Source: Escherichia coli (GTDB taxonomy: Bacteria; Pseudomonadota; Gammaproteobacteria; Enterobacterales; Enterobacteriaceae). Taken from it: a stretch of DNA of 64,000 nt. The first letter of the stretch is position 1, and the number at the start of each line of letters is the position of its first letter. Below, piece after piece: positions 24,193 through 54,879 of this stretch. Location of the stretch: assembly GCA_902500205.1 (NCBI GenBank), contig GCA_902500205.1_4868.1; one strand, given 5' to 3'. The notes under the pieces were generated by a model, which searched no databases, was not told the DNA's origin, and saw only the letters and a list, made by a program, of their open reading frames with translations. The position numbers and the translations under genes are program-made.

Positions 24193-24211
24193 CAGATAGA
24201 TGTCATCTTAG
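24193..24211 (+). promoter_or_regulatory. Recurrent motif copy 1 (cAGATAGATGTCATCTtag)
   Basis: Matches the consensus seen at six intergenic sites upstream of plus-strand genes. Confidence 0.35.
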
Positions 24212-24305
24212 TGAGCATTGTGTATAAACCCACAGTCGCTTAAACACCAACTGTTCTTTAGTAACAGTTTTTGGTCACTTTAGTGTACTTTAAAGGAAAT
24301 ACCAA

Positions 24306-25544
24306 ATGTATAACGAATACGAATTAGTTTACCAGACACCGAAAGAAGCATTCTTTAATGCAGTAATTACTAACTCAATTGTACTGTTGGGAATGCAGTT
24401 CAATATTCGGAGTATGGCTTACAGCGACGTAACGTGGCAGGATTGTGCGTGCCTGCCACAAAAGCTCTCAACCGTTGTCGAAAAGCGGCTGCTTGACAAA
24501 GGGGAAGTAAAGTGCCGTTTAGGCCACCACGTCTCTGACTTAGCGCCGTGGGTTGAATTAACCATGACATTCGAAGGGGATACGCGGGTAGCTTACCTAT
24601 CGGGTAATCAAAACATCGGACGCGCCATTGCTGAGGGTAACACAATGTGGGTGCACTACATTCTTACTCTGCTGATCGATAAACCGGTGTTCGAGTTAAC
24701 ACCAGACATGCCTACACTAAGCGATAGCAACTGGTGGACTGGCGGAGAGCTGAATACAGGGTTTAATGAGAAATTACAAAACTTTAATTCAGAGCGGCTT
24801 GATGTTGATGCGGAAGTGTTGGTGCAGCAGTTCCCCGAATTCACTGCGTACCAAATTACTACCGTATGGAATAGAGCGGTAAGCAAGCGCAGATTCTACA
24901 CGAAAAACGCACCGCGTGAAGCAGCCAAACCTGTGGAAATTGACGAAGAGACCAAGGAAGCACTGCGTGATCTAGTCACCATAGCCAATGATAGCAATAT
25001 GATGTTCTGGACATCTGATGAAAACGCTAACCATTATTTCGGTGAGATGTTAGACGCCGATGTTTGGTCAGTAATGCCGATAACAGAGCCAGGAAACCTT
25101 AAAGATTACTATAAGGTCGAAAAGGATGAGGTGGTTAATGAGAAAGTCCTCACTCTTCTTGCTGTTTTCCGCGAAGTTATCCAGTCAGAAATACTGTTAA
25201 GCATCTATAAACGCAAGACCCCGGCCAGTGAAAATGACACGGCGTGGGTATTTGACTGCCGACCGACAAATACAATATCGCCTGCGTTCTGGATACAGGT
25301 GACAGGAAAGCTGCAGCGTGTGAACAGTTATGTTGTTTCTCGCCTGCCAGATTCTGAAATGCGCTCCGTTGCCGAACCTGCTTATTTGATGTCGGCGAAG
25401 GCGGTACGGGATGCGTGGGGTACCAACGAACTGAAACAATGGCATTACGACGCTATCATCAAATGGGGTGTTAACAATGGCTGGAAAGAAGTGACTAAGT
25501 ACGGCCGTCAACTGTTGTTTGTCGCTGATTTGCGTTTACTGTAA
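24306..25544 (+). CDS. Hypothetical protein (412 aa)
   Basis: ORF track; no motif recognised. Confidence 0.6.
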   Translation: MYNEYELVYQTPKEAFFNAVITNSIVLLGMQFNIRSMAYSDVTWQDCACLPQKLSTVVEKRLLDKGEVKCRLGHHVSDLAPWVELTMTFEGDTRVAYLSGNQNIGRAIAEGNTMWVHYILTLLIDKPVFELTPDMPTLSDSNWWTGGELNTGFNEKLQNFNSERLDVDAEVLVQQFPEFTAYQITTVWNRAVSKRRFYTKNAPREAAKPVEIDEETKEALRDLVTIANDSNMMFWTSDENANHYFGEMLDADVWSVMPITEPGNLKDYYKVEKDEVVNEKVLTLLAVFREVIQSEILLSIYKRKTPASENDTAWVFDCRPTNTISPAFWIQVTGKLQRVNSYVVSRLPDSEMRSVAEPAYLMSAKAVRDAWGTNELKQWHYDAIIKWGVNNGWKEVTKYGRQLLFVADLRLL

Positions 25545-25554
25545 TCTCGTCATC

Positions 25555-25586
25555 GGGGGTCTTGTACCCCCTTCTTATTTTTTAAC
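25555..25586 (+). terminator. Probable rho-independent terminator
   Basis: Hairpin gggggt-cttgt-accccc followed by ttcttatttttt. Confidence 0.5.
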
Positions 25587-25604
25587 CGTAAAGAGTATTT
25601 AACC

Positions 25605-26186
25605 ATGCCACAACCAATTATTGAACAACATGAAATGAACTACGAAGAACTGACCCGCCGCTATCGCGTGAAAGCCCCACGGGTAGTAGAAGGTTGCGAG
25701 AAATACAAAGAAGCAGACTTCGTGGTATTCCAACGCGAAGGTGTTCCGATGTTGGTGTTCGTAAAACACGTCACCACCGATAACGACGACCGTCTAGTGA
25801 TGCTGTATAACGTGATGGCTACCGTACTAGATACTGATATTGGGTTGTTACGTCGTTATAAATCATCCTACGAACAAAAAGCGAAGGTGGTTGCTTTTGA
25901 CTTACCACGCACGGTACTAGTAGATGGTTCCCGTCCGGCTATTCTTCGTTTTACGAAAAGCGAAGACGACAGTAACCCAGCGCATACTGTTCAGCCACTA
26001 ACGCTGTCGCAAGATACGTTACAGCAGAACGGCGGGATGGATTGGCTAAACGTCATGTTACCGGGCCTAGCTGAAGGTCAGGAACTGCATCTGGTTTGCT
26101 ACACCCCATCCGTTGAGCACACCTATGCGCGTTACCTTACCGAAGAACACGGTTTCCGTAACCACCGTGGTATTTACATTGCGTAA
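25605..26186 (+). CDS. Hypothetical protein (193 aa)
   Basis: ORF track. Confidence 0.55.
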   Translation: MPQPIIEQHEMNYEELTRRYRVKAPRVVEGCEKYKEADFVVFQREGVPMLVFVKHVTTDNDDRLVMLYNVMATVLDTDIGLLRRYKSSYEQKAKVVAFDLPRTVLVDGSRPAILRFTKSEDDSNPAHTVQPLTLSQDTLQQNGGMDWLNVMLPGLAEGQELHLVCYTPSVEHTYARYLTEEHGFRNHRGIYIA

Positions 26187-26195
26187 GGTGAGTGT

Positions 26196-26759
26196 ATGTC
26201 CCGTTTACTAGAAATTCGAAACGATATCTGGCAAGAGCACATCCGCAACGATCCGGAGTGGGAAGGAGTTGAAAGTGATTTACCGGATAACCCCGACCAG
26301 CTGTTGGTGTTCCTTTATAGCGATAAAGCCAAACAGATCAAGGGGATATTTGAACGCAAAACGACAAGCTTGTCGACCTTACTGAGCTGCATTTGCTGTG
26401 GCGTCAGTGAGCTTGATCCCAATCTATTCACCAACTATCTTGCGCGTAAAGTCCGTACACCGCTACTGGAGGTTACACTCCCGCCAGATATTCGTATCAG
26501 TAAAACCGTACCGACCGTTTTGCGTTTACAGGATGTGTCTGGTAGTAGCGACGACGGGGAAACAACGATTACCCTTTCCTCGTCAGAGGGTGAACTCGCA
26601 ACCGAATCGTTTCTTAGCGAAGTCGAGGCCGGATTAAAGCAGGACGTAATCGTCTATAATCTCGGCGGTGTGCCCATTGAACCCATTTTACACTTCTTTG
26701 AAAGCCAAACCTGCCATCTTGTAGAAAGCTTAACATACCACTTTAAAGGAGCTTTATGA
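26196..26759 (+). CDS. Hypothetical protein (187 aa)
   Basis: ORF track. Confidence 0.55.
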   Translation: MSRLLEIRNDIWQEHIRNDPEWEGVESDLPDNPDQLLVFLYSDKAKQIKGIFERKTTSLSTLLSCICCGVSELDPNLFTNYLARKVRTPLLEVTLPPDIRISKTVPTVLRLQDVSGSSDDGETTITLSSSEGELATESFLSEVEAGLKQDVIVYNLGGVPIEPILHFFESQTCHLVESLTYHFKGAL

Positions 26760-27286
26760 TGAAACTCGAAGGCTACGTTGTTACTGATAAACCTTTTGCT
26801 GAAGCCAACCTGTCGCGTTCACAGGTTGTTTATAAAGACATCGATGTGCCTGCCGAAATCGTTAAAGCGAATCCCAGCTGGCTAATCAACCACGTTTCTT
26901 TGGAAATCACCAATCCGTTTATCAACGATCCAACCGACCCATTTGTCGACATGGGTAATTTCCGCGATATTCTTTCCCCGCATCAATACCAGACAGTGGC
27001 ACAGAAGAAAGGGAACTTGCTCACCGAAACGAATGAGTGGGAGCGTATCCAAGAGCGTCATCCTGAAAAGGGTTTAATGGAAATTTATCACCAACACCCT
27101 AAAGAGTTTGACAAATTACCCCTGTGGGCATCGGTGGCGTATAACTGCAGTGGGATATATGACCATCTGTTGCTGAGCGGATACGATGGCGCAATACACG
27201 CAGCCGAAGGCCCGCACACGCCGGTGACTGCTTATCACACATTTCACCCAGCGCGCATCACTTTCATCGAAACGTTGAGTGTGTAG
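26756..27286 (+). CDS. Hypothetical protein (176 aa)
   Basis: ORF track; start overlaps the upstream stop. Confidence 0.55.
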   Translation: MMKLEGYVVTDKPFAEANLSRSQVVYKDIDVPAEIVKANPSWLINHVSLEITNPFINDPTDPFVDMGNFRDILSPHQYQTVAQKKGNLLTETNEWERIQERHPEKGLMEIYHQHPKEFDKLPLWASVAYNCSGIYDHLLLSGYDGAIHAAEGPHTPVTAYHTFHPARITFIETLSV

Positions 27287-27291
27287 TTTAT

Positions 27292-27332
27292 CTCCAGTAA
27301 CCACGAGGGTTACTGGAGTCCTCTTATTTTTT
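27292..27332 (+). terminator. Rho-independent terminator
   Basis: Hairpin ctccagtaacc-acgagg-gttactggag followed by a T-run. Confidence 0.65.
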
Positions 27333-27365
27333 ACACTTAACTCAAATTAATTTGAGGTGTGGTAT

Positions 27366-27953
27366 ATGACAGAACGTATTTTACGACTGCAAGAGAACAG
27401 GTTAGAAGACCTGCACGTAATGCGTAGTCGTGGCTTGTTTCCGGTGGGGCTTGATGTGAGTGGATTATTAACTGCCGCAGAGCACGGGGACAAGGTCATT
27501 ACAATGCATTCACGTGGGAACGAAGTGGTCTCTGCGATTTTCATCGATAAGGTTATTCCGGACTCGGAAAGTGGTAAGGTGGCGGGACACATCATTTACG
27601 AATACTTTCGCAGCATTCTATACGAGGAAAAGATAAATGTCAAAACTTTTATGGAGTACGCTAAGCGAAATAACTACATCGATGCGCGACTGATGGTCAC
27701 GGAAGGCACCCCAACTATAAACGGTAAAGTCCACCATCGTTTACTTGGAGCACAGTTGCCGAGACTAGGCGAGATACCAACGACGATAGAGCTGCACCAA
27801 AAAACAGATTGGCGACACAAAATCGAAGTGCTTCACAAGCTTTACGATTTATCGATCGTTCAAATCAAACTGGTGGACTTTACGCCTGCAAATATGCAAA
27901 TCGCTAAGCGCGCGTTGGGTTTTCGTATTCTTAACACAACCTTCACATTGTAA
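27366..27953 (+). CDS. Hypothetical protein (about 195 aa)
   Basis: ORF track 27357..27953; the first codon lies inside the GAGGTG RBS, so ATG at 27366 (MTERIL) is preferred. Confidence 0.55.
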   Translation: MTERILRLQENRLEDLHVMRSRGLFPVGLDVSGLLTAAEHGDKVITMHSRGNEVVSAIFIDKVIPDSESGKVAGHIIYEYFRSILYEEKINVKTFMEYAKRNNYIDARLMVTEGTPTINGKVHHRLLGAQLPRLGEIPTTIELHQKTDWRHKIEVLHKLYDLSIVQIKLVDFTPANMQIAKRALGFRILNTTFTL

Positions 27954-27958
27954 AATAT

Positions 27959-27979
27959 CTCAGATATATATTACCTAGG
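27959..27979 (+). promoter_or_regulatory. Recurrent motif copy 2 (ctCAGATATATATTACCTAGG)
   Basis: Degenerate match to the recurrent motif; contains the palindrome ATATCTCAGATAT. Confidence 0.3.
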
Positions 27980-28003
27980 TGAGAGTTAAGAGATTAACTC
28001 AAT

Positions 28004-28032
28004 GGCTACCTTCGGGTAGCCTATTCTTTTTT
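28004..28032 (+). terminator. Rho-independent terminator
   Basis: Hairpin ggctacc-ttcg-ggtagcc followed by a T-run. Confidence 0.65.
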
Positions 28033-28057
28033 AAACCAATCGACTATAGAGTAAAAC

Positions 28058-28459
28058 ATGACTATCAAGAAGTTCTTACAAACAGTAGTAGTTCTGGCCG
28101 CATGTGGCATCGCAGCAACTTATGCTTTCGATAAGCCAGACGTGACTGAATACGTATCTGCGGATTCCGATTACGGTATTGCACCGAATGAAAAACCGGA
28201 ACTGATGCGTGAGGTCGAACAGTTACAAATCTACAAACTGACGGATGGTAAGAACTGCACAGGGCTGGTTATCGCTGATAAGAAACTGAAAATGTATCAG
28301 CGATTAACCGACATATCGTGCGATCAACCAAAAGTCACTTCGGTCAGCGTATCGCCGTTGGAATTACCAGATCTGGTTGCTGTGAGTTTTTATCACAACG
28401 ATGTGCTCGTTGGTCGCATCACCCTCATTCGTGGAGATATCAAAAATGAAATGCAATAA
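28058..28459 (+). CDS. Small secreted protein or lipoprotein (133 aa)
   Basis: N-terminal signal peptide with possible lipobox (VLAAC); two further Cys. Confidence 0.55.
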   Translation: MTIKKFLQTVVVLAACGIAATYAFDKPDVTEYVSADSDYGIAPNEKPELMREVEQLQIYKLTDGKNCTGLVIADKKLKMYQRLTDISCDQPKVTSVSVSPLELPDLVAVSFYHNDVLVGRITLIRGDIKNEMQ

Positions 28460-28937
28460 CGTTAATCACCACTTGGCCAAAGTGGTGCTTTTTACTGTGC
28501 TGTTGATGGCACTTGTTGTTGGGCTACGGATTTCTAAGGCGCACGCTGACGAATTCAGCGGGTTCCAGGGCAGTATTAACGGCAGCATTCCAGCATATAC
28601 CCGCACCATCAATCTTAATGATAAGCCGTTCTGGTGCAATGCGCGTAAGCTGCTTAAGAAACAGTGTCGTGTAGTTGACATATCCTTCAACGGACGTGTC
28701 GCTATCGTACACCGTCCGGGCGATAAAGATTGCCCAGGTGGTTGGTGGGGTGCAGTCGACCGTCACAACGGTGACGCGTTATGGCTTATCCCTAATCGTG
28801 ATGAACTATCAGTGGAGAAAATTTGCAGCAAAGATTTCAGGGCCGGTTTTGTACAGCGACCTGATACCAAAACTCTGGCCTCCATCGCTATGTACTACGG
28901 TATGGAAACCATCAAAACAATCGACTATTCAGAATAA
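28446..28937 (+). CDS. Small secreted Cys-containing protein, paralog 1 (about 163 aa)
   Basis: Start moved to MKCNNVN; signal peptide; motif FWCNARKLLKKQC...DCPGGWWG resembles the next two genes. Confidence 0.5.
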   Translation: MKCNNVNHHLAKVVLFTVLLMALVVGLRISKAHADEFSGFQGSINGSIPAYTRTINLNDKPFWCNARKLLKKQCRVVDISFNGRVAIVHRPGDKDCPGGWWGAVDRHNGDALWLIPNRDELSVEKICSKDFRAGFVQRPDTKTLASIAMYYGMETIKTIDYSE

Positions 28938-28959
28938 CTCAAAAAATTGAGGTGCTATT

Positions 28960-29370
28960 ATGAAACATTTTTTATTACCAGTTTTACTTGCTACTCTGGC
29001 CATTAGCTTCTTCGCTCGTGCTGGAAGTATCGAGTTACCAAAAGTTGTTAACGATCACGAATACGGCGGAGAGTTCTGGTGCCAGAACTCTGACGTACAA
29101 GGCGGTAGCTGCCAGATCGTTGCGATGTCCGATAACAACCGTTACCTGTTAGTGAAAACGATGGGCGGTGTCGCATGTGGCGACCCTGAATACGGGGTTA
29201 TTAACATGGCAACCGGGCAAGCCGAATCCATGAACTATAATGATAACCAAGCCTGCAGTGGTGAAGCCGTTGCTGAGTTTACACGCGACCCAGGCGACAA
29301 TGCCCTGACGGTTATCATGTACGACCCTACGATTAAGAAAAACGTAGGCATCAATAAACTCGACTTTTAA
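28960..29370 (+). CDS. Small secreted Cys-containing protein, paralog 2 (136 aa)
   Basis: Signal peptide MKHFLLPVLLATLAISFFARA; motif FWCQNSDVQGGSC...ACGDPEYG. Confidence 0.55.
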   Translation: MKHFLLPVLLATLAISFFARAGSIELPKVVNDHEYGGEFWCQNSDVQGGSCQIVAMSDNNRYLLVKTMGGVACGDPEYGVINMATGQAESMNYNDNQACSGEAVAEFTRDPGDNALTVIMYDPTIKKNVGINKLDF

Positions 29371-29383
29371 GTAAGGAAACAAC

Positions 29384-29767
29384 ATGCGTGGATTTATGGG
29401 TATTATCGCGGCGGTGTTCTTGACCGCTTCCGCTTCAGCTACAACCAGCGTAGAAGATTTACTGCCGGGCACACCGTATCAGTACAACCCGCCTTCATTC
29501 GAAGTCTGTACTGGCGACGATGGCAGATGTGAAGAAGTCAGCCGTCACGACGAGTATATCCTGGTCCACGCAAAGGGCGAGGAAACTTGTCCGGCTGGTT
29601 ACTACTTCTTGTTGAACTCAAAGGCACAAGAGATTGTGCCGGTAGAGACAATAACGTGCGACCCGACGCTTCGCGCGTCGCTCGCTTACAATACGAAAAC
29701 CAAACAGCGCCTCCTGGTTATTGAACAACAAGGCGAAGTGCGTGGTTCAATAGCGCTCGACCAGTAA
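29384..29767 (+). CDS. Small secreted Cys-containing protein, paralog 3 (127 aa)
   Basis: Signal peptide; motif EVCTGDDGRCEEV...TCPAGYYF. Confidence 0.55.
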   Translation: MRGFMGIIAAVFLTASASATTSVEDLLPGTPYQYNPPSFEVCTGDDGRCEEVSRHDEYILVHAKGEETCPAGYYFLLNSKAQEIVPVETITCDPTLRASLAYNTKTKQRLLVIEQQGEVRGSIALDQ

Positions 29768-29779
29768 CCGAAAAGTTTT

Positions 29780-29801
29780 CAGACAGATGTTATAACGTGA
29801 G
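29780..29801 (+). promoter_or_regulatory. Recurrent motif copy 3 (CAGACAGATGTTATAACgtgag), overlapping a downstream hairpin
   Basis: Motif match; immediately followed by an 8-bp-stem hairpin gtgagatg-acgaccc-catctcac. Confidence 0.35.
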
Positions 29802-29896
29802 ATGACGACCCATCTCACTTTGGCCCTGCGGTGATTTCCCCAACACTTAGCCGCAGGGTCCTTTTTAATCGACTATTACCCGTAAGGATTAAGCAA

Positions 29897-30397
29897 ATGA
29901 ACATGAACATTCTCGACGATACCCGTTCTTCTTTCTTTACTCAGATGAACGTTAACCCTGAACGTACCCGTGCTATTCTTTCTACTGGTTGGAAGTTGAA
30001 GTTGTTAGGCGAGTTAACCCTCAATCGCACCGACTGGCCAGCAGAAGCAACCGTACTGATTAACAGCATTCACAGCGAGTGGCTAGATGCTGCGTTGAAT
30101 GCCCCACAACTACGTCCGTACTATCGGATGCTTCACGCGGGATATGAAGTATACCGCAAAGGTTGGTACGATGCAGCCACATATTGCAACATCCCTGGAG
30201 GTCGTGAAGACAACACCGTCGACCACGTATTAGTGAATAACTTCTGGGGCGACCAAATTGAGGTCTTACAACTCTCTACCGGTGACCGTATTCCGGCCTG
30301 TGAGTTATTCGAAACTAACGCACAAATGTACGAACCGTATGCAATGATTCGTGGCCATAAGGTCCCAATCATTTCCCTTATGCATATGGGGCTGTAA
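29897..30397 (+). CDS. Hypothetical protein (about 166 aa)
   Basis: ORF track 29831..30397; start moved to ATG with AAGGA RBS (MNMNILDD). Confidence 0.55.
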   Translation: MNMNILDDTRSSFFTQMNVNPERTRAILSTGWKLKLLGELTLNRTDWPAEATVLINSIHSEWLDAALNAPQLRPYYRMLHAGYEVYRKGWYDAATYCNIPGGREDNTVDHVLVNNFWGDQIEVLQLSTGDRIPACELFETNAQMYEPYAMIRGHKVPIISLMHMGL

Positions 30398-30405
30398 ATA
30401 CGAGA

Positions 30406-30434
30406 GGTAGCCTACGGGCTACCTTCTTTTTTTG
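30406..30434 (+). terminator. Rho-independent terminator
   Basis: Hairpin ggtagcc-tacg-ggctacc followed by a T-run. Confidence 0.65.
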
Positions 30435-30451
30435 TTGAAGAAGGATTAAAC

Positions 30452-31078
30452 ATGAACGAGATTACCCTGATTCGTTTCATCGACGACATGGTGACGTGTC
30501 AGAAAGCGAATCGTCGGGATACCAAACTGCGTATCAATCTGATGGAAGAAGAGGTAGAAGGGTTTCTGGAATACCCGCGATTGGTGAAGTGGTTTAAAGA
30601 AGCACTGCCGCGTAGCTGGGAACAGCTAGAAGCGTGGTTTGCTCTACCTATTGCAGAACGTAACCCTAACAATACGATCTTTACCGGAACCACTGCATTA
30701 GATTTGGCTGGTTCGGTGGAGCAACCTAAACGTTTGGTTTTCTTCTACGTCAATGGCGATTCAATAATGGCTGATACAGTTAACTGGATTTCTGATGAGT
30801 TGACTGTAAACACCACTTTGGTCGGTAGCGCTGCTGATGCCTGGGTTGTTGGTCAGCACCAATCGCAACCGTACGAAGAAATCAAAACCGGTTATTTAAT
30901 CCCGATATATCTCGACGGCGTGGCACCCGGTCGTAGTGCCGAACTGTTCAAATTCCTGCTTACTGAAACGTTAAAGGTTGTCGATTCTGATGCCGGGCGG
31001 GCGTGGTATGAATTAACCAAAGAGCGCACCGATAGTTTTTGGGAATCACTCGGACACCGTAAGTTTATTCCGCAATAA
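30452..31078 (+). CDS. Hypothetical protein (208 aa)
   Basis: ORF track; no metallophosphoesterase (Mre11/SbcD) motifs seen. Confidence 0.55.
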   Translation: MNEITLIRFIDDMVTCQKANRRDTKLRINLMEEEVEGFLEYPRLVKWFKEALPRSWEQLEAWFALPIAERNPNNTIFTGTTALDLAGSVEQPKRLVFFYVNGDSIMADTVNWISDELTVNTTLVGSAADAWVVGQHQSQPYEEIKTGYLIPIYLDGVAPGRSAELFKFLLTETLKVVDSDAGRAWYELTKERTDSFWESLGHRKFIPQ

Positions 31079-31089
31079 CTCTCCTCTCT

Positions 31090-31121
31090 GGAACCCTTCG
31101 GGGTTCCATTTCTTCTTTTTT
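31090..31121 (+). terminator. Rho-independent terminator
   Basis: Hairpin ggaaccc-ttcg-gggttcc followed by a T-run. Confidence 0.7.
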
Positions 31122-31174
31122 ACGCATGACCTTTTGGATATGAACGACTAATACTTTCTCATTAGAAGGCAAAC

Positions 31175-33685: not shown

Positions 33686-33866
33686 AGGTTGGCGCTTATG
33701 GGCTTGGTGGGGTTTTCAGTTCCTTCAGTTTGTTGTGATGGTACTGTACCTCTCCTTTTGTGCAACCGTAGTGGTTATCGCTGCGGTCGTTTATTTAGCT
33801 GCTGCTCTTAAAGAACGTCTGTTCGACACGCGTTGTGAGTGGCGAGATATAGGAGAACGGACATGA
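33675..33866 (+). CDS. Small membrane protein (63 aa)
   Basis: Hydrophobic helix FQFLQFVVMVLYLSFCATVVVIAAVVYLAAAL; overlaps the end of the ATPase gene. Confidence 0.4.
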   Translation: MHHKGWRLWAWWGFQFLQFVVMVLYLSFCATVVVIAAVVYLAAALKERLFDTRCEWRDIGERT

Positions 33867-35299: not shown

Positions 35300-35324
35300 T
35301 CCTGTTTTAGCACTCCTTACGATT

Positions 35325-36535: not shown

Positions 36536-36784
36536 ATGCAAAAAACAATCATCGGAATAATGGTTGGTTCTTTCTGTGGCTTCCCTACCCCACAAACAGA
36601 ACCCCAATATTTGGGCGCAGGCAAACCTGATCCGGAAGTCCGTAAGTTGCGCGAAGAAGCAAAAGCCAGAGTTCTTACTGAGCTGGAATCGCTGCTTCAG
36701 TCTCCGGTTATTTCACAATGGGGTATGGCAATAGATGTCACTAGAACTGATCGACGAGGCTATTATCTCCCACGACCTGTTTAA
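36536..36784 (+). CDS. Hypothetical protein (82 aa)
   Basis: ORF track. Confidence 0.5.
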   Translation: MQKTIIGIMVGSFCGFPTPQTEPQYLGAGKPDPEVRKLREEAKARVLTELESLLQSPVISQWGMAIDVTRTDRRGYYLPRPV

Positions 36785-37235
36785 CGCGCCTGAGCGCTTC
36801 AAGGTCGTTACAGTTAACTGTGTTGGTGCGATGGGAAGGGGCATTGCCTTGGCGTGCCGAGAACGCTTCCCATCGCTTTATAACGACTATCGCCAGAAAT
36901 GTCGTAAAGAGCAAATCGTTATCGGTGAGGTCTATTGTTATCCTGAGGAAGGGGTAATACTCCTTCCTACTAAAACCCATTTTCGCTATAAATCGCAGAT
37001 TTACTATGTCACGTCCGGCATTGATGCGCTGGCGCGACTAGGGGAAGACTTAGAAGGAGGGATTGCGATACCGCCCCTAGGGATGGCTAACGGTTGGTTA
37101 CGTTACCATGAGCGATTGGAAATCTTTATACACTTACAGAAACGACTACAGCACACGGAGCAGACTTATCGATTCTATTTACCAGACACCCTGCTGAGGG
37201 AAGCAGAGAAAATCATCCCAAAAAGTTTCAAATAG
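36735..37235 (+). CDS. Macro-domain-like (ADP-ribose-binding or -processing) protein, tentative
   Basis: VVTVNCVGAMGRGIALA resembles the macro-domain N-terminal motif (V-N-A-A-N ... G-G-G-V ... A-I), and IAIPPLGMANG resembles the macro F-P-A-I-S-T-G motif; by-eye comparison only. Confidence 0.45.
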   Translation: MSLELIDEAIISHDLFNAPERFKVVTVNCVGAMGRGIALACRERFPSLYNDYRQKCRKEQIVIGEVYCYPEEGVILLPTKTHFRYKSQIYYVTSGIDALARLGEDLEGGIAIPPLGMANGWLRYHERLEIFIHLQKRLQHTEQTYRFYLPDTLLREAEKIIPKSFK

Positions 37236-37250
37236 ATATTATTATCAGGG
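37229..37250 (+). promoter_or_regulatory. Recurrent motif copy 4 (caAATAGATATTATTATCAGGG)
   Basis: Motif match upstream of the lytic transglycosylase gene. Confidence 0.4.
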
Positions 37251-37333
37251 CACATTACAAAGGAGCACAATGCCGTCCGCGCCGTCTTCCCGGATTGGGA
37301 ACGGAAAAGTATAAATCCGTTTGGAGAACATCC

Positions 37334-38056
37334 ATGTTTCGCACCATTTTATTTCTTCTGGTAGCAGTGACCACATTCAACAGCAACGCTTCTTACCAGT
37401 CCACCAGTAACAAACATCAAAAAGAATTTGTCCTTATCCAGGACCAGTTCAATGAGATTAAACCTCTCATCGTCTCTGCATCTCAAAAGCAAGGTGTACA
37501 TGCCGGGATGCTTGCGACCACCATTTACCGTGAATCCCGTTTTAATAAAAACGTGGGTAAGAATAAATCGAGCAGTGCTAGTAGTGTTGTCCAAATGACG
37601 ACAGGCACTAAACGCTCCATGATACGTCTGTATGGGAAACAACTTAACATCCCAAAGAACGCAGACCTTAATAAACCGAAATATGCTGTACAGCTTGCTG
37701 CTGTTTACATGAAACACATCGAGGATCATCTGACAAAACAACTCAAACGCAAGCCGAGCACAGCCGAAATCGCATTAGGCTACCGCTTCGGTGAGAGCGC
37801 TGCTGTTGCGATGATTAAAAAGAAATCATCGGTCGGGAAACGCTGGATGGACAGCTACCGAAAAGACGCAGCATTCTACGGTGCGAAAATGACGCCACCG
37901 AAAGCTGAAACACGTCAGCTTGCTTTTGCGAAGGAAGACCGCGACCAACACGTCGCTGAGCTTCAGAAAATCTGGGATACGCTGTACAGCAAAGTATCAC
38001 CTGCGGCCGGTACATTACTGGCAAATAACACTATCATGAAAGGAGCATTGCTTTGA
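37334..38056 (+). CDS. SLT-domain lytic transglycosylase with N-terminal signal peptide (about 240 aa)
   Basis: Signal-like N-terminus MFRTILFLLVAVTTFNSNA; catalytic-region motif TTIYRESRFN...SSVVQMTTGT matches the family-1 lytic transglycosylase E-S ... Q pattern; start moved from track 37295. Confidence 0.6.
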   Translation: MFRTILFLLVAVTTFNSNASYQSTSNKHQKEFVLIQDQFNEIKPLIVSASQKQGVHAGMLATTIYRESRFNKNVGKNKSSSASSVVQMTTGTKRSMIRLYGKQLNIPKNADLNKPKYAVQLAAVYMKHIEDHLTKQLKRKPSTAEIALGYRFGESAAVAMIKKKSSVGKRWMDSYRKDAAFYGAKMTPPKAETRQLAFAKEDRDQHVAELQKIWDTLYSKVSPAAGTLLANNTIMKGALL

Positions 38057-45575: not shown

Positions 45576-46316
45576 ATGTTGCGAGTCGTGAGTGAATCGC
45601 TCACGCTCCACACACAAAGTCTGATTAACTGTGTGGAGCAATACGGATGGATGTCGTGGATGGCAACGAACCGTGAGTTTGGTGCTGCGCCCATGGAAGA
45701 TTACGACCTGTTGTACAAGTGGGGATTTGAGGCGGCTTGTGATGTTGTGGCGGAACTGGTTACTGAAACAATTGCGCGTTACAATGCAAGATGTGACGAA
45801 CCGATGCCCAAACAAGTCCCACCGCAAATACCTCCGCTACCGACAATCGATCGTGAGCATTGTCGTATCTGGACAATGGAAGAGTTGTACGACGAACACG
45901 TTAGAATGCTGAAACCGAACGAGCTAATAACCGGTGCGTTGAACTGGTTCTTACATCGTTTCTGGACAGAGTTGGTCGATGTGGCGGGTGACGAAGATAA
46001 CTGTTCTCAGGTTATTTGGTACGATCGAGCGATGTTTCATCGCAGTCTTAAAGATCGTAGTCTGTGCAACTTGTATATTGTTAACCCGTGTGAAGACATT
46101 GTAAGGGTAGCAGAAGGTAACTCTTATTCCGACTTGGTGATACCTGTGGTAGAGAAACCGATGGGTATTTTCCTGCAGGGAGACGCTTGGGTTTTAACGG
46201 ATGATATCTCGGGCTACCTGCTGGACCCGGATGACATTCACTCGGACGAACCTGATACCATCGAGTATTTTCACTTTACAGAACAGGCAGCACGCTTCTT
46301 GCATCTCTTAAAGTAA
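45576..46316 (+). CDS. Hypothetical protein (about 246 aa)
   Basis: ORF track 45516..46316; start moved to first ATG after the upstream stop (MLRVVSES). Confidence 0.55.
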   Translation: MLRVVSESLTLHTQSLINCVEQYGWMSWMATNREFGAAPMEDYDLLYKWGFEAACDVVAELVTETIARYNARCDEPMPKQVPPQIPPLPTIDREHCRIWTMEELYDEHVRMLKPNELITGALNWFLHRFWTELVDVAGDEDNCSQVIWYDRAMFHRSLKDRSLCNLYIVNPCEDIVRVAEGNSYSDLVIPVVEKPMGIFLQGDAWVLTDDISGYLLDPDDIHSDEPDTIEYFHFTEQAARFLHLLK

Positions 46317-46317
46317 T

Positions 46318-46340
46318 CTGAGATAGATATTATCTACAGG
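46318..46340 (+). promoter_or_regulatory. Recurrent motif copy 5 (ctGAGATAGATATTATCTACAGG)
   Basis: Best-conserved copy; about 30 bp upstream of the ATG at 46370. Confidence 0.45.
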
Positions 46341-46369
46341 GACGTAACCTTAAGGAGAATTTATTCACG

Positions 46370-47104
46370 ATGCTTAAAGTCGAAGTGCCAGTGCTTTTAA
46401 ACCTCACGCCCCAGTTCTTTGAAGCGTTGTTCGAAAAGCATTGGCCCGCGTTCGCGAAGAACGAACTAAAGGATAACCCACAGTGGTATCCACTGCGCGA
46501 TGAATTCAAGTACACAGCCATCAACGTCTGTATAGAAGTCTTCACTGCGTGGTTACAAGAGATGTACGACTGCATCAACACCGAACGGTTGTTCACGCTA
46601 GAACATGTAGAGATTAATGTTGTTGACGTCTACGAAGGTTACACCTACGAAGAGGGCATTACTGCCACGGGGTTAAGCCAACAAGACGTTGAAGAACAAA
46701 TCTTTGCGTGGATCGAGTGGTTTACGGAAAAGTTGATGCTGGCTGATTTTGTCACGCAGGTGGAAGATGTATTCATCCCAATGTACGAGCGGTTAGCTGA
46801 GATACGTCGTAACCATCGACTGCTCGGTTACTGGTATGACACTTATACCACCTCCTCAACACTGTGGTCTTCCGCTACTGCCGCATTTGGCATAACTGAT
46901 GGCGATTACGATGTCGTTCATTCCGGCCCTTGGCAGTATGGTTTCGGCACCCTGTGGCACGAGCTGACCGATGCCATGTGTCTGGACTTTTATCTGTGTG
47001 AAGGTAAGTTTTACACGGATAACTGCGTGAGCCAAATTCCGAATGGTGCGATGGTGGTGATGTGTCGCATCCGTAAAGAAGTCTCTGAGAAACTAAACTA
47101 CTGA
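46370..47104 (+). CDS. Hypothetical protein (244 aa)
   Basis: ORF track; AAGGAG RBS. Confidence 0.6.
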   Translation: MLKVEVPVLLNLTPQFFEALFEKHWPAFAKNELKDNPQWYPLRDEFKYTAINVCIEVFTAWLQEMYDCINTERLFTLEHVEINVVDVYEGYTYEEGITATGLSQQDVEEQIFAWIEWFTEKLMLADFVTQVEDVFIPMYERLAEIRRNHRLLGYWYDTYTTSSTLWSSATAAFGITDGDYDVVHSGPWQYGFGTLWHELTDAMCLDFYLCEGKFYTDNCVSQIPNGAMVVMCRIRKEVSEKLNY

Positions 47105-49035: not shown

Positions 49036-49064
49036 AATCGACCATTAATCTAAAGGAGTATTAA

Positions 49065-49988
49065 ATGGACAGCTTTCTTTTTGATTTGGCAGAATCGGTA
49101 AATGTAGATGTAATCGGTATGCGCGAATCCCCGAGTAATTTCTTAAACGGTCTTACTAAAATCGACGAACGTGTGAAATCCAGAAGTGGAGATCCCGCCA
49201 TCATCGAGCAATACGCAATAGCCCATTGTGGCGAGATAGGCCAGCACTTTATACCGATTGAGGCGTTCCTAAAGAACTGCTTCGCCGAAGAATGCACCGC
49301 AGACTTCCTGTCTCTTGCCTACGGCTGGCGATACGGGGGTATCCAAATGGAATTTGATCTTAATATTTTTGAACAAGTTCTACTTGGCGACGTTCTCACT
49401 GAGATACCACGCAGCTGGATAGACAAGATTCCCGGTTGGGCCGTCTCCTTTTCAGTGTGCTATCGCGCTAAAGATATCGGTATCCAAGAAAAGACTTACG
49501 TTTTCGGTCGGCGAATGTTTAAAGGGAAAGATTGTTTAACAATGATGATTTTTGGAAAACGTATCGAGGGGGAAACCTTTGAAATCGTGGACGTGGGTGA
49601 CGGCTTTGTATCCTTGCGTGTGGCGGAAACTGGTACGCCGGCCAATGAGAAAACGTTACGCATTGTCGGCGCTACCATGTTTACATTCTCACTGATCCCG
49701 CACAACCCTACACCCGTCAAACTGAGACAATTAACTGGAAAGAAACGTATCGCCAATTACCACATTGAACCAAAATCTAAACCGACTGTCCTCTCCACCG
49801 TAAAAGCACAAAGCGAGTATCTTGAAGAATTTGATACTGATACGGAGAAAAGAACACAAGGTAGCAGATGTGCGCATATGCGTCGTGCACACTGGTGTAC
49901 TTACTGGCTCGGTCCACGTGACGGGAATCGGACAAAGATTTTGAAATGGATACCGCCGACATTTGTCAACGGTTCTAAATGCAAATAA
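49065..49988 (+). CDS. Hypothetical protein (307 aa)
   Basis: ORF track; AAGGAG RBS. Confidence 0.6.
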   Translation: MDSFLFDLAESVNVDVIGMRESPSNFLNGLTKIDERVKSRSGDPAIIEQYAIAHCGEIGQHFIPIEAFLKNCFAEECTADFLSLAYGWRYGGIQMEFDLNIFEQVLLGDVLTEIPRSWIDKIPGWAVSFSVCYRAKDIGIQEKTYVFGRRMFKGKDCLTMMIFGKRIEGETFEIVDVGDGFVSLRVAETGTPANEKTLRIVGATMFTFSLIPHNPTPVKLRQLTGKKRIANYHIEPKSKPTVLSTVKAQSEYLEEFDTDTEKRTQGSRCAHMRRAHWCTYWLGPRDGNRTKILKWIPPTFVNGSKCK

Positions 49989-52701: not shown

Positions 52702-52746
52702 GCATTGGCGGGGCAACCCGCCTGTTTTTCCCCCTGAGGATTAGCG

Positions 52747-53022
52747 ATGCGTTATCAGAAAGATATTGTAGAGCGTCTGTGTCTGGGTCTCGCTGGTATT
52801 AGCCAGGAACTTAGCACCGCGTTCCATAACGAGTTCTCAGCACCGCGACATGCACTGTCTGAATTTAGTCATCAGGTAAATGCCCATTACGGCAACCTGA
52901 TTAATGATAAACCGAAGGTTGATGCGGTCGGTGTGCCTGAACACAATGAAGATATCCCGTACTGGATTGAAGACCTGGAACGTGTGGTTCTTCCAGTGCT
53001 CCGTGAGAGGATGAAAAAATGA
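52747..53022 (+). CDS. Hypothetical protein (91 aa)
   Basis: ORF track. Confidence 0.5.
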   Translation: MRYQKDIVERLCLGLAGISQELSTAFHNEFSAPRHALSEFSHQVNAHYGNLINDKPKVDAVGVPEHNEDIPYWIEDLERVVLPVLRERMKK

Positions 53023-53687
53023 GATTAGACCCGGCACGGCGAAAAAAAGCAGAAGCTTATGCTTTACAGTTACTGAACTTAGTTGACCCGACCGGGATTA
53101 ACGCGGAAGCTGCCAAGCGCGCTTTCTCACGAATGTCTGACGAGGAGTTCAATCGTCTGCGCGAAGGGTTGCCTGTTTACAACCCAACTGGCGGCAAGGT
53201 CAAAATTGACCACATGCGCAATATTAAAATTTGCGAAGCGATGGGACTGAACTTGTGTCAGCGCCTGTGGCTCACGGAACCGAAAACCGGTATCCTACAA
53301 CGTACCCGTTACCCCCATTTAGTCTTCCGCCTGCCTGCACGTCGCCAGACGCAGATGCAAGAGAAGAAAATGGCGGTGGCGAAGAACGATAAAGTCCGCG
53401 ATAAACTCTCAGGTCAGGTAGTAGGACCTTCCAAAGCTTCGGGTGTTTCGTTTCCAGAAGCCTACATCATGTACTCGGATGGACACGACTCAACGCTCCA
53501 GGAGTTCCTGTGGGCGCGTGGTGGTAACGATACGTTACAACGTGCGTTCTATCAATCGCTACGGCAAACCGGTAAAGGTCGCATCAACCTGGAAGGGGCT
53601 GAGCGTACCAGTTCAAAAGCGCCGCGTACATGGTCTTCGTACTTTAAAGCAATGCACATCGGTAACAACTTAGGACGCCCGGAATGA
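53019..53687 (+). CDS. Hypothetical protein (222 aa)
   Basis: ORF track; overlapping stop/start. Confidence 0.55.
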   Translation: MRLDPARRKKAEAYALQLLNLVDPTGINAEAAKRAFSRMSDEEFNRLREGLPVYNPTGGKVKIDHMRNIKICEAMGLNLCQRLWLTEPKTGILQRTRYPHLVFRLPARRQTQMQEKKMAVAKNDKVRDKLSGQVVGPSKASGVSFPEAYIMYSDGHDSTLQEFLWARGGNDTLQRAFYQSLRQTGKGRINLEGAERTSSKAPRTWSSYFKAMHIGNNLGRPE

Positions 53688-54412
53688 GATTAGGACGCCG
53701 TTTCTTAGTCGATATCGACACAATCTTCGATACACGAATTGGTTGGGCGAAAGTGCTGCAGCCTGATGTATTAGAGAAGCTTGATTTAGAAGTGTATCGG
53801 ATGCGGTTCACAGATGCGTGGGCCGAAGTGGTAGGAATTCAGGACTGGAATAAAAAGTTCGCGGAGCGTGATAAACGCGCGTTGCAGAACGCGCAGCCAA
53901 CAGAAATGTTGCTTACGCTAAAGAACGAAGTACAGGCAATGTTAATGACGATACAGATGCACGCTCCTATCGAGCGGCCAGTCTTAACGTTTAACCTGTG
54001 GCCATACGCTGATCTCGATGATGAAGAACGTCATGCGTTTTTGGAAGAGCTGCGTTACTACTATAACGAAGTGCAAGTAGACGTCGTTGTTATTCCTCAC
54101 AGCGATCTTACACCAGGACGACTTGCTTCGGCGTGGGACGGTTGGATAATGTACGACTGGTACCCGTGGATAGAACAACACGCGGGCCATTTCCAGAAAC
54201 CGATTCCGGATTTTACGATTACCCGACCGAGTATGCTGACCAGCGAATTAACGGAAGAAGCAATCGCGCAAATAAAAAGAGATAAGGTGAACCCCTTTAA
54301 GGAGTCCACCCGTTTTCTTGCCCAATACGTCGGTACTGACGTAAAGGACACTGCGCTGTTTAGTCTTCGTCGTCATCAGCAGGACGACGACTCGCAAACG
54401 CAGACGCCATGA
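53684..54412 (+). CDS. Hypothetical protein (242 aa)
   Basis: ORF track; overlapping stop/start. Confidence 0.55.
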   Translation: MRLGRRFLVDIDTIFDTRIGWAKVLQPDVLEKLDLEVYRMRFTDAWAEVVGIQDWNKKFAERDKRALQNAQPTEMLLTLKNEVQAMLMTIQMHAPIERPVLTFNLWPYADLDDEERHAFLEELRYYYNEVQVDVVVIPHSDLTPGRLASAWDGWIMYDWYPWIEQHAGHFQKPIPDFTITRPSMLTSELTEEAIAQIKRDKVNPFKESTRFLAQYVGTDVKDTALFSLRRHQQDDDSQTQTP

Positions 54413-54830
54413 TCTGGTCAACGTCAATCTTTTCGCCTACTGGTGCCAACTCACCTTCTTTCGGAGGCCGTACTGCGGCAATCTGTGGGACGGTGGGTTG
54501 GTATCCGTTATTTAAATCTTCTTCATCATCGTGACGTTTGATACCAACGCCAGCACGGGTCATTAAGAAGCCGTTTAAACTGTTGGCCAAATCTTGAGTC
54601 GCCTCAGCGCCTTTCTCAGCAGCTTTAATTTTCCGCTTCGTCATGACCTGTTTGTCGATGCCGTTGATTAGGCGCTCGATTCGGTCGACGGCTTTTAAGT
54701 CTTTGTGTACTTCACCGTCGTTAACCATATCTGTGACGAGCTTAACGCGTAGCTGTTGTGTTTGGCGGAGAAGCGAATCTTCGTTGTCCACATCTCCGTC
54801 GAACGCTTGGTATTTCACTTCTTCGCTCAT
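54360..54830 (-). CDS. Hypothetical acidic protein (156 aa), convergent with the upstream plus-strand gene
   Basis: ORF with GAGG-type RBS by my reading; highly acidic termini; its 3' end overlaps the 3' end of the gene at 53684..54412. Confidence 0.4.
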   Translation of the reverse strand: MSEEVKYQAFDGDVDNEDSLLRQTQQLRVKLVTDMVNDGEVHKDLKAVDRIERLINGIDKQVMTKRKIKAAEKGAEATQDLANSLNGFLMTRAGVGIKRHDDEEDLNNGYQPTVPQIAAVRPPKEGELAPVGEKIDVDQIMASAFASRRPADDDED

Positions 54831-54854
54831 GGGATAACCTCATCTCAAAAAGAA

Positions 54855-54879
54855 CTCAGACAGATATTATCTATCCGAG
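54855..54879 (+). promoter_or_regulatory. Recurrent motif copy 6 (ctCAGACAGATATTATCTATCCGAG)
   Basis: Motif match about 28 bp upstream of the ATG at 54907; sits in a divergent intergenic region. Confidence 0.45.

Follow-up and report, generated by a model that had tools for sequence, protein, structure and literature searches.

Early transcription in phiKZ-like giant phages is driven from a well-described class of promoters. In phiKZ, 28-32 such sites, recognised by the virion RNA polymerase (vRNAP), have been mapped by primer extension, dRNA-seq and ONT-cappable-seq, and an early primary start site has been mapped at gp54. Transcription starts 6 nt downstream of the promoter element in both phiKZ and phiR1-37. 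For the Bacillus jumbo phage AR9, 41 mapped start sites define the early promoter AAATATATATTAT-(6N)-G+1. Additionally, early consensus sequences have been predicted for Klebsiella phage N1M2 (TBYAWWWWWTTTCARRYAKATATTATYWAAGTGWA) and Pseudomonas phage OBP (BSHAWWWWWTTTYARRYAKATATTATYWWADTG) (Lewis et al. 2020, PMC7058600), and N1M2 promoters were reported upstream of a lytic murein transglycosylase (PMC7058600).

Here we analysed a repeated motif in a 64,000-nt stretch of DNA, hereafter the window, which shares 98.7% identity with Escherichia phage EC001 and ~98% with Salmonella phage SPN3US (Seoulvirus). Judged by this identity, its source is an SPN3US-like jumbo phage of the phiKZ-like genus Seoulvirus. 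The motif is the already described early-promoter signal of phiKZ-like giant phages, which is expected in an SPN3US-like phage, and is thus a known kind of element rather than a new one.

Results

Six copies of an extended motif

A matrix scan of the window found exactly six copies, all on the plus strand (Table 1). A sequence-only reading had listed six plus-strand sites, and each was recovered within 2 nt: the 17-mer core starts exactly at the proposed 24193, 29780 and 37229, while the proposed 27959, 46318 and 54855 precede the actual start by 2 nt in each case. The literal consensus of that reading, CAGAYAGATATTATCTA, describes four of the six copies at ≤3 mismatches (copy 6 exactly, copy 5 with one mismatch), but the copies at 29780 and 37229 need four each. 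At ≤3 mismatches this string gave 6 matches in the window versus 0.20 expected; the two non-members were the palindromic 54857 copy matching itself on the reverse strand and an accidental match at 7836. When leave-one-out weight matrices were built from five sites, the left-out site always ranked 6-7 among the 127,938 window positions, and a matrix of 24 SPN3US sites, described below, scored the six at 20.8-45.4 with the next independent match at ≤4.4. The conserved block is also longer than the roughly 20 bp first proposed; it spans ~36 bp, TC-N-A(A/T)5-TTT-CAGATAGATATTATCT-NN-GTGA, adding the TC-N-A-rich/TTT part upstream and GTGA downstream.

Five of the copies lie in non-coding gaps, as had been proposed for all six, whereas the 37229 copy overlaps the end of the upstream ORF (36735..37235) and covers its last 7 nt, TAG stop included. 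Relative to mechanical ORFs of ≥100 aa, 5/6 sites fall outside, compared with 0.10 of the sequence being non-coding (p = 6e-5). Copy 6 occupies a divergent gap beside the minus-strand ORF 54360..54830. The distance of about 30 nt to the start codon noted for the best copies holds at 46320 and 54857, where the predicted 5'UTR is 30 nt (to ATG 46370 and ATG 54907, respectively); at each of the remaining four, 77-98 nt separate the predicted +1 from the ATG downstream. In five of six cases, the gene that comes first after a copy matches only phage families of unknown function, as is typical of jumbo-phage early genes. The sixth, downstream of copy 4, encodes a transglycosylase, which has no obvious early function and in this respect counts against an early promoter there.

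Table 1 Motif copies, leaders and neighbouring genes in the window
Feature	Position	Strand	Core	Predicted start	Matrix score	Remarks
Motif copy 1	24181..24216	+	24193-24209	G 24213	36.8	leave-one-out rank 6 of 127,938
First gene after copy 1	24306..25544	+				hypothetical protein, 412 aa; first in the operon
Motif copy 2	27949..27984	+	27961-27977	G 27981	45.4	best score in window
Copy 2 leader	27983..28033	+				5'-proximal hairpin 27983-28000; terminator-like hairpin 28004-28021, then T-run to ~28032
First gene after copy 2	28058..28459					
Motif copy 3	29768..29803	+	29780-29796	29799-29801	20.8	weakest score; leave-one-out rank 7
Copy 3 leader	29799..29867	+				5' hairpin 29799-29816; long terminator-like hairpin 29822-29860, then U-run
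First gene after copy 3	29897..30397					
Motif copy 4	37217..37252	+	37229-37245	G 37249	30.7	
Gene after copy 4	37334..38056					SLT transglycosylase (SLT domain and transglycosylase family matches)
Motif copy 5	46308..46343	+	46320-46336	G 46340	36.7	
First gene after copy 5	46370..47104					
vRNAP beta C-terminal subunit gene	53019..53687					SPN3US gp218; inside the window
Motif copy 6	54845..54880	+	54857-54873	G 54877	39.7	
First gene after copy 6	54907..55437					

Distribution in the complete SPN3US genome

Applied to the complete SPN3US genome, the six-site matrix returned 24 sites scoring >21, all on the plus strand, with the next independent match at ≤13. Sites outside ORFs number 21/24 (p = 2e-19), and roughly 22 of the copies fall in intergenic DNA. 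Intergenic enrichment is seen in the window and in SPN3US alike. A conserved G follows columns 6-13, (G/T)ATATTA(T/C), by 6 nt at 23/24 sites.

We then compared the sites with the polymerase genes, using the phiKZ structure 7OGP as reference to identify homologues of the non-virion subunits. A motif site stands directly upstream of every SPN3US operon with a non-virion RNA polymerase subunit gene, namely the homologues of gp55 (E = 5e-39), gp68 (E = 2e-6), gp71-73 (E = 2e-29), gp74 (E = 9e-39) and gp123 (E = 3e-20). Directly upstream of the SPN3US vRNAP genes (gp42, gp218, gp240, gp241 and gp244), no copy was found.

Comparison with early promoters of related phages

The same core and spacing recur in phiKZ as TATATTAC-6N-G, where A and T tracts lie further upstream, near -20 and -30. 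In phiKZ DNA this arrangement, preceded by the A and T tracts, is present upstream of gp6, gp10, gp31, gp36 and gp54. As in SPN3US, the phiKZ promoters are co-oriented with leading-strand genes and precede the non-virion polymerase genes. The two differ in that the SPN3US-type block reaches further upstream, to CAGATAGAT, and has TTAT more often than TTAC. A tandem pair of SPN3US sites heads a gene in the position of phiKZ gp54, with no sequence homology detectable between that gene and gp54. AR9 matches at 11/13 core positions with the same 6 nt to the initiating G, although it is a distant relative with uracil-containing DNA and other upstream tracts.

The predicted consensus sequences of OBP and N1M2 are nearly identical to the window motif and in register with it. 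The window copies show 3-8 mismatches to these degenerate strings; copy 2 has 4 to N1M2 and 3 to OBP, in register, and copy 4 has 3 to OBP. The five best matches of the OBP string in the window are five of the sites of the sequence-only reading, and at ≤7 mismatches the string occurs at exactly 24 places in SPN3US, a count only, whose coordinates were not compared with the matrix sites. Copy numbers are alike (31 in N1M2, 24 in SPN3US), and in both phages the promoters precede genes of unknown function, RNA polymerase beta subunit genes and a lytic transglycosylase (PMC7058600). OBP and N1M2 differ from SPN3US in host and genus, and the promoters of all three are predictions from sequence.

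Conservation across genera

Members of three genera, Seoulvirus, Erskinevirus and Machinavirus, carry the sites at orthologous positions. Copy 1 has an identical site in SPN3US at 161918. SPAsTU, whose DNA is ~70% identical, and Erwinia phage Asesino both keep orthologous intergenic sites. In SPAsTU (L007) copies 2 to 6 lie at 2541, 4612 (score 30.2), 11994, 20923 and 28479, and in Asesino (L008) copies 2, 4, 5 and 6 lie at 908, 12077, 20904 and 30610. Copy 4 precedes the transglycosylase orthologue in both phages, copy 5 is conserved despite diverged flanks, and copy 6 is identical over 36 nt in SPAsTU and has the same score in Asesino. A 49-nt stretch at copy 2 is the sole DNA-level match of a 3.1-kb query to the Machina-group Erwinia phages. 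In Erwinia phage Machina, 7/7 orthologous sites were recovered, among them the tandem pair and the single intragenic site. This pattern suggests that the motif sites are under purifying selection.

Copy 3 stands apart and counts against the early-promoter reading: it is weak, it is the only SPN3US-family site with the conserved G shifted by one nucleotide from the canonical position, and the motif is missing from the orthologous spot in Asesino.

Leader hairpins at copies 2 and 3

Hairpins had been noticed after two copies and are indeed present after 27961 and 29780. The copy 2 leader folds with -20 kcal/mol (z = -4.6), and a terminator scan flags its 28004-28021 hairpin; a AATCGACTAT box (28038-28047) and the ATG (28058) follow. 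The copy 3 leader folds with -28.9 kcal/mol (z = -5.7) and is followed by a AATCGACTAT box at 29867-29876 and the ATG at 29897. Both first stems show compensatory changes, from GAGTTAA/TTAACTC in the window to GCATTGA/TCAATGC in Asesino at copy 2, and from GAGATG/CATCTC to GAGACG/CGTCTC in SPAsTU at copy 3. Since Asesino retains both copy 3 hairpins despite having no promoter motif at that spot, the second one probably serves as a terminator of the upstream operon as well.

A terminator-like hairpin between promoter and gene does count against a role in mRNA synthesis at these two sites, which would be poor mRNA promoters if termination were efficient. The earlier argument that the hairpins speak against promoters at the two sites nevertheless falls, as both phiKZ and 201phi2-1 are documented to have 5'UTR terminators shortly after start sites, which give rise to short RNAs and read-through transcripts; in phiKZ, such a short RNA of ~71 nt was confirmed by northern. 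The hairpins after copies 2 and 3 fit this type of terminator, and transcripts from these copies probably either end there, yielding short RNAs of ~50 and ~68 nt, or continue into the gene.

Discussion

The motif could instead serve the host, with RNA polymerase starting early transcription in a T4-like manner from TATTAT as the -10 box and the A/T tracts as UP element. Motif positions 8-13 form a hexamer that agrees with TATAAT at 4-5/6 positions, A/T-rich tracts do lie upstream of the core, and, as with a sigma-70 -10 element, the hexamer lies 6 nt upstream of the predicted start. The earlier statement that the motif is unlike the sigma-70 pair therefore stands for the -35 box but not for the core, which carries a -10-like TATTAT or TATTAC at the canonical 6 nt from the conserved G. 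Given this geometry, the TATTAT copies might conceivably be used by the host enzyme. However, the best TTGACA match at 16-18 nt spacing averages 2.42/6 versus 2.44 at random positions, and there is no TG extension. A sigma-70 scan of 23500-38500 picked up 0/4 motif sites, and sigma-70-like sites were not enriched there (18 found versus 22.4 expected). In 7/24 SPN3US copies the hexamer reads TATTAC, in which C replaces the critical final T and which is the exact phiKZ early core. Conservation in the much longer block extends beyond the reach of sigma-70 (GATAGA upstream of the hexamer, an invariant A at -29, GTGA at the start), and phiKZ-type phages transcribe independently of the host polymerase. 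An operator, at which a dimeric phage regulator would bind the dyad TAGATA-T-TATCTA, alone or overlaid on a promoter as in early shut-off, draws on the partly palindromic core noted earlier. The best copies do carry a 13-bp near-perfect palindrome, and one of the motif-headed SPN3US genes (94310..94675) has the annotation HTH DNA-binding protein. Yet the dyad is lost in variant copies and the losses are uncompensated, with 106 complementary pairs versus 104.8 expected if columns were independent (permutation p = 0.34), and the common variant ATATATATTACCT is asymmetric. All 24 SPN3US copies share one orientation with strongly asymmetric flanks, the fixed spacing to the conserved G and the copy before every non-virion polymerase operon are promoter properties, and the homologous TATATTAC of phiKZ and AAATATATATTAT of AR9 are mapped, non-palindromic promoters. 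Because the -35 box is missing and the dyad is not kept in variants, we regard a sigma-70 promoter as unlikely and an operator as very unlikely.

It is highly improbable that the motif is a middle-class promoter for the non-virion RNA polymerase instead of the injected virion enzyme. The polymerase assignment is by analogy only, and in 201phi2-1 the promoter closest to some non-virion subunit genes is a middle or late one; but with all five subunit genes behind the motif, the non-virion enzyme cannot be its first user. Since no enzyme transcribes its own genes first, a pre-existing polymerase must read the motif. In addition, the middle and late motifs of phiKZ differ (a weak AT-rich or TACT element at ~-22, TATG at the start), whereas the motif agrees with the early promoters of phiKZ, AR9, OBP and N1M2. 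We give almost no weight to a non-functional dispersed repeat left by duplicated intergenic modules or a mobile element. At 9/24 SPN3US sites a downstream hairpin and a AATCGACTAT box are also present, possibly as copied modules. Against this, flanks and downstream genes are unrelated among sites, terminal repeats and transposase genes are absent, each copy keeps the same strict position upstream of a gene, and orthologous positions are held across three genera while the flanks diverge.

Taken together, the six sites are very probably early promoters of a phiKZ-like (SPN3US-type) jumbo phage, serving the injected virion RNA polymerase. Of the two roles proposed earlier, the phage-specific promoter is strongly supported and the operator is not. 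A literature search for this phage lineage turned up neither transcript 5' ends nor timing data nor in vitro transcription, so the polymerase assignment and the start nucleotide rest on analogy; it is from the related phages that we infer vRNAP recognition, the exact start and early timing. A multisubunit vRNAP packaged in the capsid would be injected with the DNA and would recognise the AT-rich GATAGATATTATCT (about -16 to -5), with a T-tract (~-23 to -21) and an A-rich tract (~-29 to -24) assisting recognition. It would start at the conserved G six nucleotides after ...ATTAT/C (Table 1; ~29800 at copy 3). The promoters would thereby drive plus-strand operons of early genes of mostly unknown function and, elsewhere in the genome, all subunits of the second, non-virion RNA polymerase, the enzyme that would in turn be responsible for middle and late transcription.

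Identification of a 36-bp motif in an SPN3US-like jumbo phage

Over a 20-kb piece, the window shares 98.7% identity with Escherichia phage vB_EcoM_EC001 and 97-98% with Salmonella phage SPN3US and the phages related to it (genus Seoulvirus, 240-kb jumbo phages), and the SPN3US equivalent of the window spans about 137.7-201.7 kb. Virion genes fill window positions 1-22 kb on the minus strand, and the genes at 24-64 kb lie mostly on the plus strand. Seoulvirus belongs to the phiKZ-like group, encoding two multisubunit RNA polymerases, of which one is carried in the virion (vRNAP) and the other produced after infection (nvRNAP). The SPN3US vRNAP subunits are gp42, gp218, gp240, gp241 and gp244, and the gp218 orthologue lies in the window at 53019..53687. 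The split virion and non-virion multisubunit polymerases that accompany phiKZ-like early promoters are therefore encoded by this phage lineage.

All six copies of the motif reported by the sequence-only reading were recovered on the plus strand, with the 17-mer core starting at 24193, 27961, 29780, 37229, 46320 and 54857 (copies 1 to 6), and the conserved block proved to be about 36 bp long rather than about 20 bp. The copies had all been called intergenic, which is correct for the five lying outside ORFs of at least 100 aa, whereas the one at 37229 overlaps the stop codon of the upstream ORF. Searching the window for the literal 17-mer with up to three mismatches gave six hits against 0.2 expected, four of them members of the set and two not. 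When any five sites were used to train a weight matrix, the omitted sixth ranked at 6-7 among about 128,000 window positions.

Six fetched stretches were then joined into the SPN3US genome, and a matrix scan of it at a threshold score of >21 yielded 24 sites, all on the plus strand, with the next independent hit scoring 13 or less. The matrix derived from these 24 sites scores the six window sites at 20.8-45.4 and every other independent window hit at 4.4 or less. The motif is not equally frequent in coding regions, the pattern that the sequence-only reading had set against its own proposal: 21 of the 24 SPN3US sites fall outside mechanical ORFs in a genome with a non-coding fraction of 9% (p = 2e-19), and only one, at 25225, is truly intragenic by the annotation of the SPN3US record. 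Many sites directly follow a terminator hairpin and T-run and stand 26-135 nt 5' of a start codon. Tens of intergenic copies co-oriented with operons are what is seen for phiKZ-like early promoters, which number 28-32 in phiKZ, 41 in AR9 and 31 in N1M2.

The motif opens with TC, one free base and an invariant A that precedes five A/T-rich positions, and continues with TTT, CAGATAGATATTATCT, a pair of free bases and GTGA. Along its length columns 7, 8, 10 and 12 are invariant, and column 11 is kept in 23 of the 24 SPN3US sites. The core (G/T)ATATTA(T/C) is followed by a G exactly 6 nt on, again in 23 of 24, which is the arrangement of phiKZ-like early promoters: a highly conserved AT-rich TATATTAY-type element of about 10-13 nt near -10 with the initiating purine 6 nt downstream.

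The motif matches early promoters of phiKZ-like phages

The AR9 early promoter, defined by 41 mapped start sites, is AAATATATATTAT-(6N)-G+1, and the SPN3US motif agrees with it at 11 of 13 core positions with identical spacing. Early transcripts of phiKZ and phiR1-37 likewise start 6 nt past an AT-rich element. In the first 50 kb of phiKZ, TATATTAC-6N-G stands behind A and T tracts in the regions upstream of gp6, gp10, gp31, gp36 and gp54, the last of which has a mapped early primary start site. The phiKZ promoters were reportedly described by Ceyssens in 2014, and early motifs are said to have been predicted across all phiKZ-related phages by Lavysh in 2016.

The closest resemblance is to the predicted early-promoter strings printed by Lewis et al. 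2020 (PMC7058600), namely TBYAWWWWWTTTCARRYAKATATTATYWAAGTGWA for Klebsiella phage N1M2 (31 sites) and BSHAWWWWWTTTYARRYAKATATTATYWWADTG for OBP, beside which the 201phi2-1 and phiKZ cores are listed. Both strings align in register with the window motif, and the consensus is nearly identical. For each string, the top five window matches all belong to the set of six, and the sixth, 29780, ranks seventh with the OBP string. With up to seven mismatches the OBP string occurs at exactly 24 places in SPN3US, a count equal to that of the matrix sites. The N1M2 consensus gave zero hits in the window at up to three mismatches, each window copy differing from this 35-nt string at 4-8 positions. In addition, the N1M2 promoters precede RNA polymerase beta genes and a lytic transglycosylase (PMC7058600), as the motif does here. 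A full-text literature search with the literal strings GATATTATCT, ATATATTAC and TAGATATTAT returned no phage paper, and the link came through the degenerate IUPAC strings (PMC7058600). According to a review, such a motif can be detected bioinformatically in every RNA-polymerase-encoding jumbo phage and is the early promoter wherever transcripts have been mapped.

The motif belongs to an established class, the early promoters of phiKZ-like jumbo phages, its consensus being close to identical with the OBP and N1M2 strings, and the phage-specific promoter offered earlier as one of two readings is upheld. Since neither a transcriptome nor a map of start sites of SPN3US-like phages turned up in the searchable literature, we infer vRNAP recognition, the start nucleotide and early timing at these sites.

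We further scanned orthologous intergenic positions in three other phages with the SPN3US-trained matrix. Orthologous motif sites were found at five positions in Salmonella phage SPAsTU (about 70% DNA identity), at four in Erwinia phage Asesino (genus Erskinevirus) and at seven of seven in the first 50 kb of Erwinia phage Machina (genus Machinavirus), including a tandem pair and the single intragenic site. When a 3.1-kb query was compared with the Machina group, the sole DNA-level match was a 49-nt stretch over copy 2.

The motif heads the operons of the non-virion polymerase

In the window, the first genes after five of the six copies match only phage families of unknown function, and the remaining one is the SLT transglycosylase. 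We identified nvRNAP subunits by searching SPN3US proteins against solved structures, the phiKZ nvRNAP being PDB 7OGP. Every SPN3US operon carrying one of the five nvRNAP subunit homologues is headed by the motif, and none of the five vRNAP genes (SPN3US 39365, 189763, 212357, 213989 and 220023) has the motif directly upstream, as for phiKZ-like early promoters. Since nvRNAP could not transcribe its own genes first, the reader of the motif must be a polymerase present at infection, either injected or from the host.

Two motif copies about 90 nt apart, at SPN3US 15613 and 15706, precede a 617-aa gene just upstream of the gp55 homologue, and the pair is kept in Machina (positions 18602 and 18693 of the Machina stretch L010). 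The nuclear-shell gene gp54 of phiKZ occupies the matching position. Searches with the 617-aa protein gave no hit in PDB or Pfam, and BLASTP showed no similarity between it and phiKZ gp54; that it is the nuclear-shell protein is suggested only by the neighbouring gp55 homologue. The copy at SPN3US 25225 lies in the gp68-homologue gene, in its 3' part, and about 260 nt separate it from the gene that follows. Because an intragenic copy stands at the same place in Machina (L010 28167), it is probably a working internal promoter. At about SPN3US 72541 (about 22541 of the SPN3US stretch L003), 3' of the motif at 72485, a Shine-Dalgarno site and ATG begin an ORF that is missing from the annotation and lies between the major head protein gene and the annotated gene that follows it.

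Other promoter types and an operator are unlikely to explain the motif

The core contains TATTAT/TATTAC, which as the -10 of a sigma-70 promoter would agree at 4-5 of 6 positions, so the earlier statement that the motif lacks sigma-70 likeness holds for the -35 box and fails for the -10. The -35 match is 2.42 of 6 against 2.44 at random, with no TTGACA-like box 16-18 bp upstream of a TATAAT-like -10, and we reject the sigma-70 reading because this box is absent. Moreover, the hexamer ends in C in 7 of 24 copies, and a sigma-70 scan missed all four sites in the region tested. The T4 late box TATAAATA, expected at -10, does not occur in the motif columns, just as the sequence-only reading had said. 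An N4-type hairpin promoter has a 5-7 bp stem and a 3-nt loop; the core allows at most a 4-bp AT-rich stem, AGAT/ATCT, with a 3-nt loop, which variants break without compensation, and the polymerases encoded here are multisubunit, not single-subunit. A promoter for nvRNAP itself is excluded for first use, given that the nvRNAP genes lie behind the motif, and the middle and late motifs of phiKZ differ from it.

The dyad TAGATA-T-TATCTA had also been read as an operator, which would bind a dimeric regulator. Such a dyad should be maintained across copies and be independent of orientation, whereas here only the consensus possesses it: variant copies disrupt it uncompensated, all copies share one orientation, and the flanks are asymmetric. 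As the half-sites show no covariation (p = 0.34), the operator is rejected.

Leader hairpins and additional conserved elements

The leaders of copies 2 and 3 each carry two hairpins, with fold z-scores of -4.6 and -5.7, respectively. The first stems show compensatory changes between orthologues, and the second hairpins are terminator-like and followed by a U-run. Hairpins at these two sites had been held to argue against a simple promoter. In phiKZ, however, 5'UTR terminators commonly yield both short RNAs and read-through transcripts, one of about 71 nt confirmed by northern blot, and 201phi2-1 shows the same pattern; the hairpins are thus no argument against promoter function. Asesino retains both hairpins in the absence of the copy 3 promoter, which implies that the second hairpin of copy 3 probably ends the upstream operon as well.

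About half of the predicted early transcripts open with a 6-11 bp stem-loop 1-5 nt from the predicted start, varying in sequence among sites and showing compensatory changes between orthologues. Twelve of the 24 SPN3US leaders fold at -5 kcal/mol or below, significantly more than in composition-matched shuffles (p = 0.001) though not significantly more than in random genomic windows (p = 0.15), so that a 5'-terminal hairpin general to early transcripts is only partly supported. Rfam returned no family at gathering score over the whole window.

A AATCGACTAT(TA) box occurs 10-31 nt upstream of start codons, directly 5' of the Shine-Dalgarno site. In SPN3US it is confined to operons headed by the early motif, 9 of 11 copies lying between the early promoter and the first ATG, and eight exact copies are present against about 0.5 expected. 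SPAsTU and Asesino carry the box at the orthologous site, and the first 50 kb of Machina lacks it. It may act as a control element of the 5'UTR or as a second promoter. At 27961 and 29780 the order is promoter, 5' hairpin, terminator-like hairpin, AATCGACTAT box, Shine-Dalgarno site and ATG. A tentative and rather doubtful reading is that these modules form a regulatory device instead of a plain promoter, with the AATCGACTAT box an undescribed cis-element. Such a device may give abundant early RNAs of ~50 nt (27981 to about 28032) and ~68 nt (29800 to about 29867) or hold a conditional terminator that gates the downstream gene, and the box may control translation or processing of early mRNAs in this phage lineage.

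TAGTATG stands 14-39 nt 5' of the start codon in structural or late-type genes, among them those for a 1237-aa virion protein, the baseplate protein and the tail sheath. Seven of its nine occurrences in the SPN3US genome are intergenic, the count alone being not above chance. The sequence is similar to T-3 A T G+1, the late promoter of phiKZ, and could be where nvRNAP starts.

Between copy 4 and the transglycosylase ATG lies a 14-codon ORF with a strong Shine-Dalgarno site, which is not conserved in SPAsTU or Asesino. The same segment contains two conserved blocks, GTCCGCGCCG and GGAAAAGTATAAATCC; the latter includes a TATAAAT-like element that three genera share, and it may be a second, later transglycosylase promoter. 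Elsewhere, a 307-aa ORF with a AATCGACCAT box upstream lies in a stretch found in EC001 and outside the SPN3US alignment, and Asesino gp235 has the same size and corresponding position.

Coordinates of nvRNAP homologues and of additional sequence elements
Feature	Genome	Position	E value	Motif sites
phiKZ gp55 homologue	SPN3US	17704-19299	5e-39	15613, 15706
phiKZ gp68 (sigma-like) homologue	SPN3US	23886-25493	2e-6	23809
phiKZ gp71-73 homologue	SPN3US	29014-31251	2e-29	28968
phiKZ gp74 homologue	SPN3US	31251-33356	9e-39	28968
phiKZ gp123 homologue	SPN3US	73754-75532	3e-20	72485, 72683
Opening stem-loops	Window	24213-24241, 27983-28000, 29799-29816		
Opening stem-loops	SPN3US	starting at 4446, 56313, 65432, 92559, 94258, 114005, 161938, 165706, 167525, 223296		
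AATCGACTAT(TA) box	Window	28038-28047, 28919-28928, 29867-29876, 49036-49045 (1 mismatch)		
AATCGACTAT(TA) box	SPN3US	4477, 23831, 56335, 65455, 94280, 114030, 165763, 166644, 167592, 223318, 224197		
TAGTATG	Window	457-463 (+), 20979-20985 (-), 23701-23707 (-)		
TAGTATG	SPN3US	64412, 138209, 158704, 161426, 229224		
Segment with 14-codon ORF, GTCCGCGCCG and GGAAAAGTATAAATCC	Window	37270-37333		
307-aa ORF	Window	49065-49988 (+)		

Discussion

The finding is an ordinary one, a re-discovery from raw sequence of the signal for the first step of the phiKZ-like, host-independent transcription cascade. Its practical value is modest but real: the SPN3US/EC001 lineage gains a list of early promoters, 24 in SPN3US and six in the window. 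A start nucleotide is predicted for each, at 24213, 27981, 29799-29801, 37249, 46340 and 54877 for copies 1 to 6. Giant-phage genetics uses this lineage as a model, and we found no start-site map for it. The list divides the likely early genes from the rest, with all five nvRNAP subunit genes wired to the motif, and the motif sites provide defined templates for vRNAP biochemistry.
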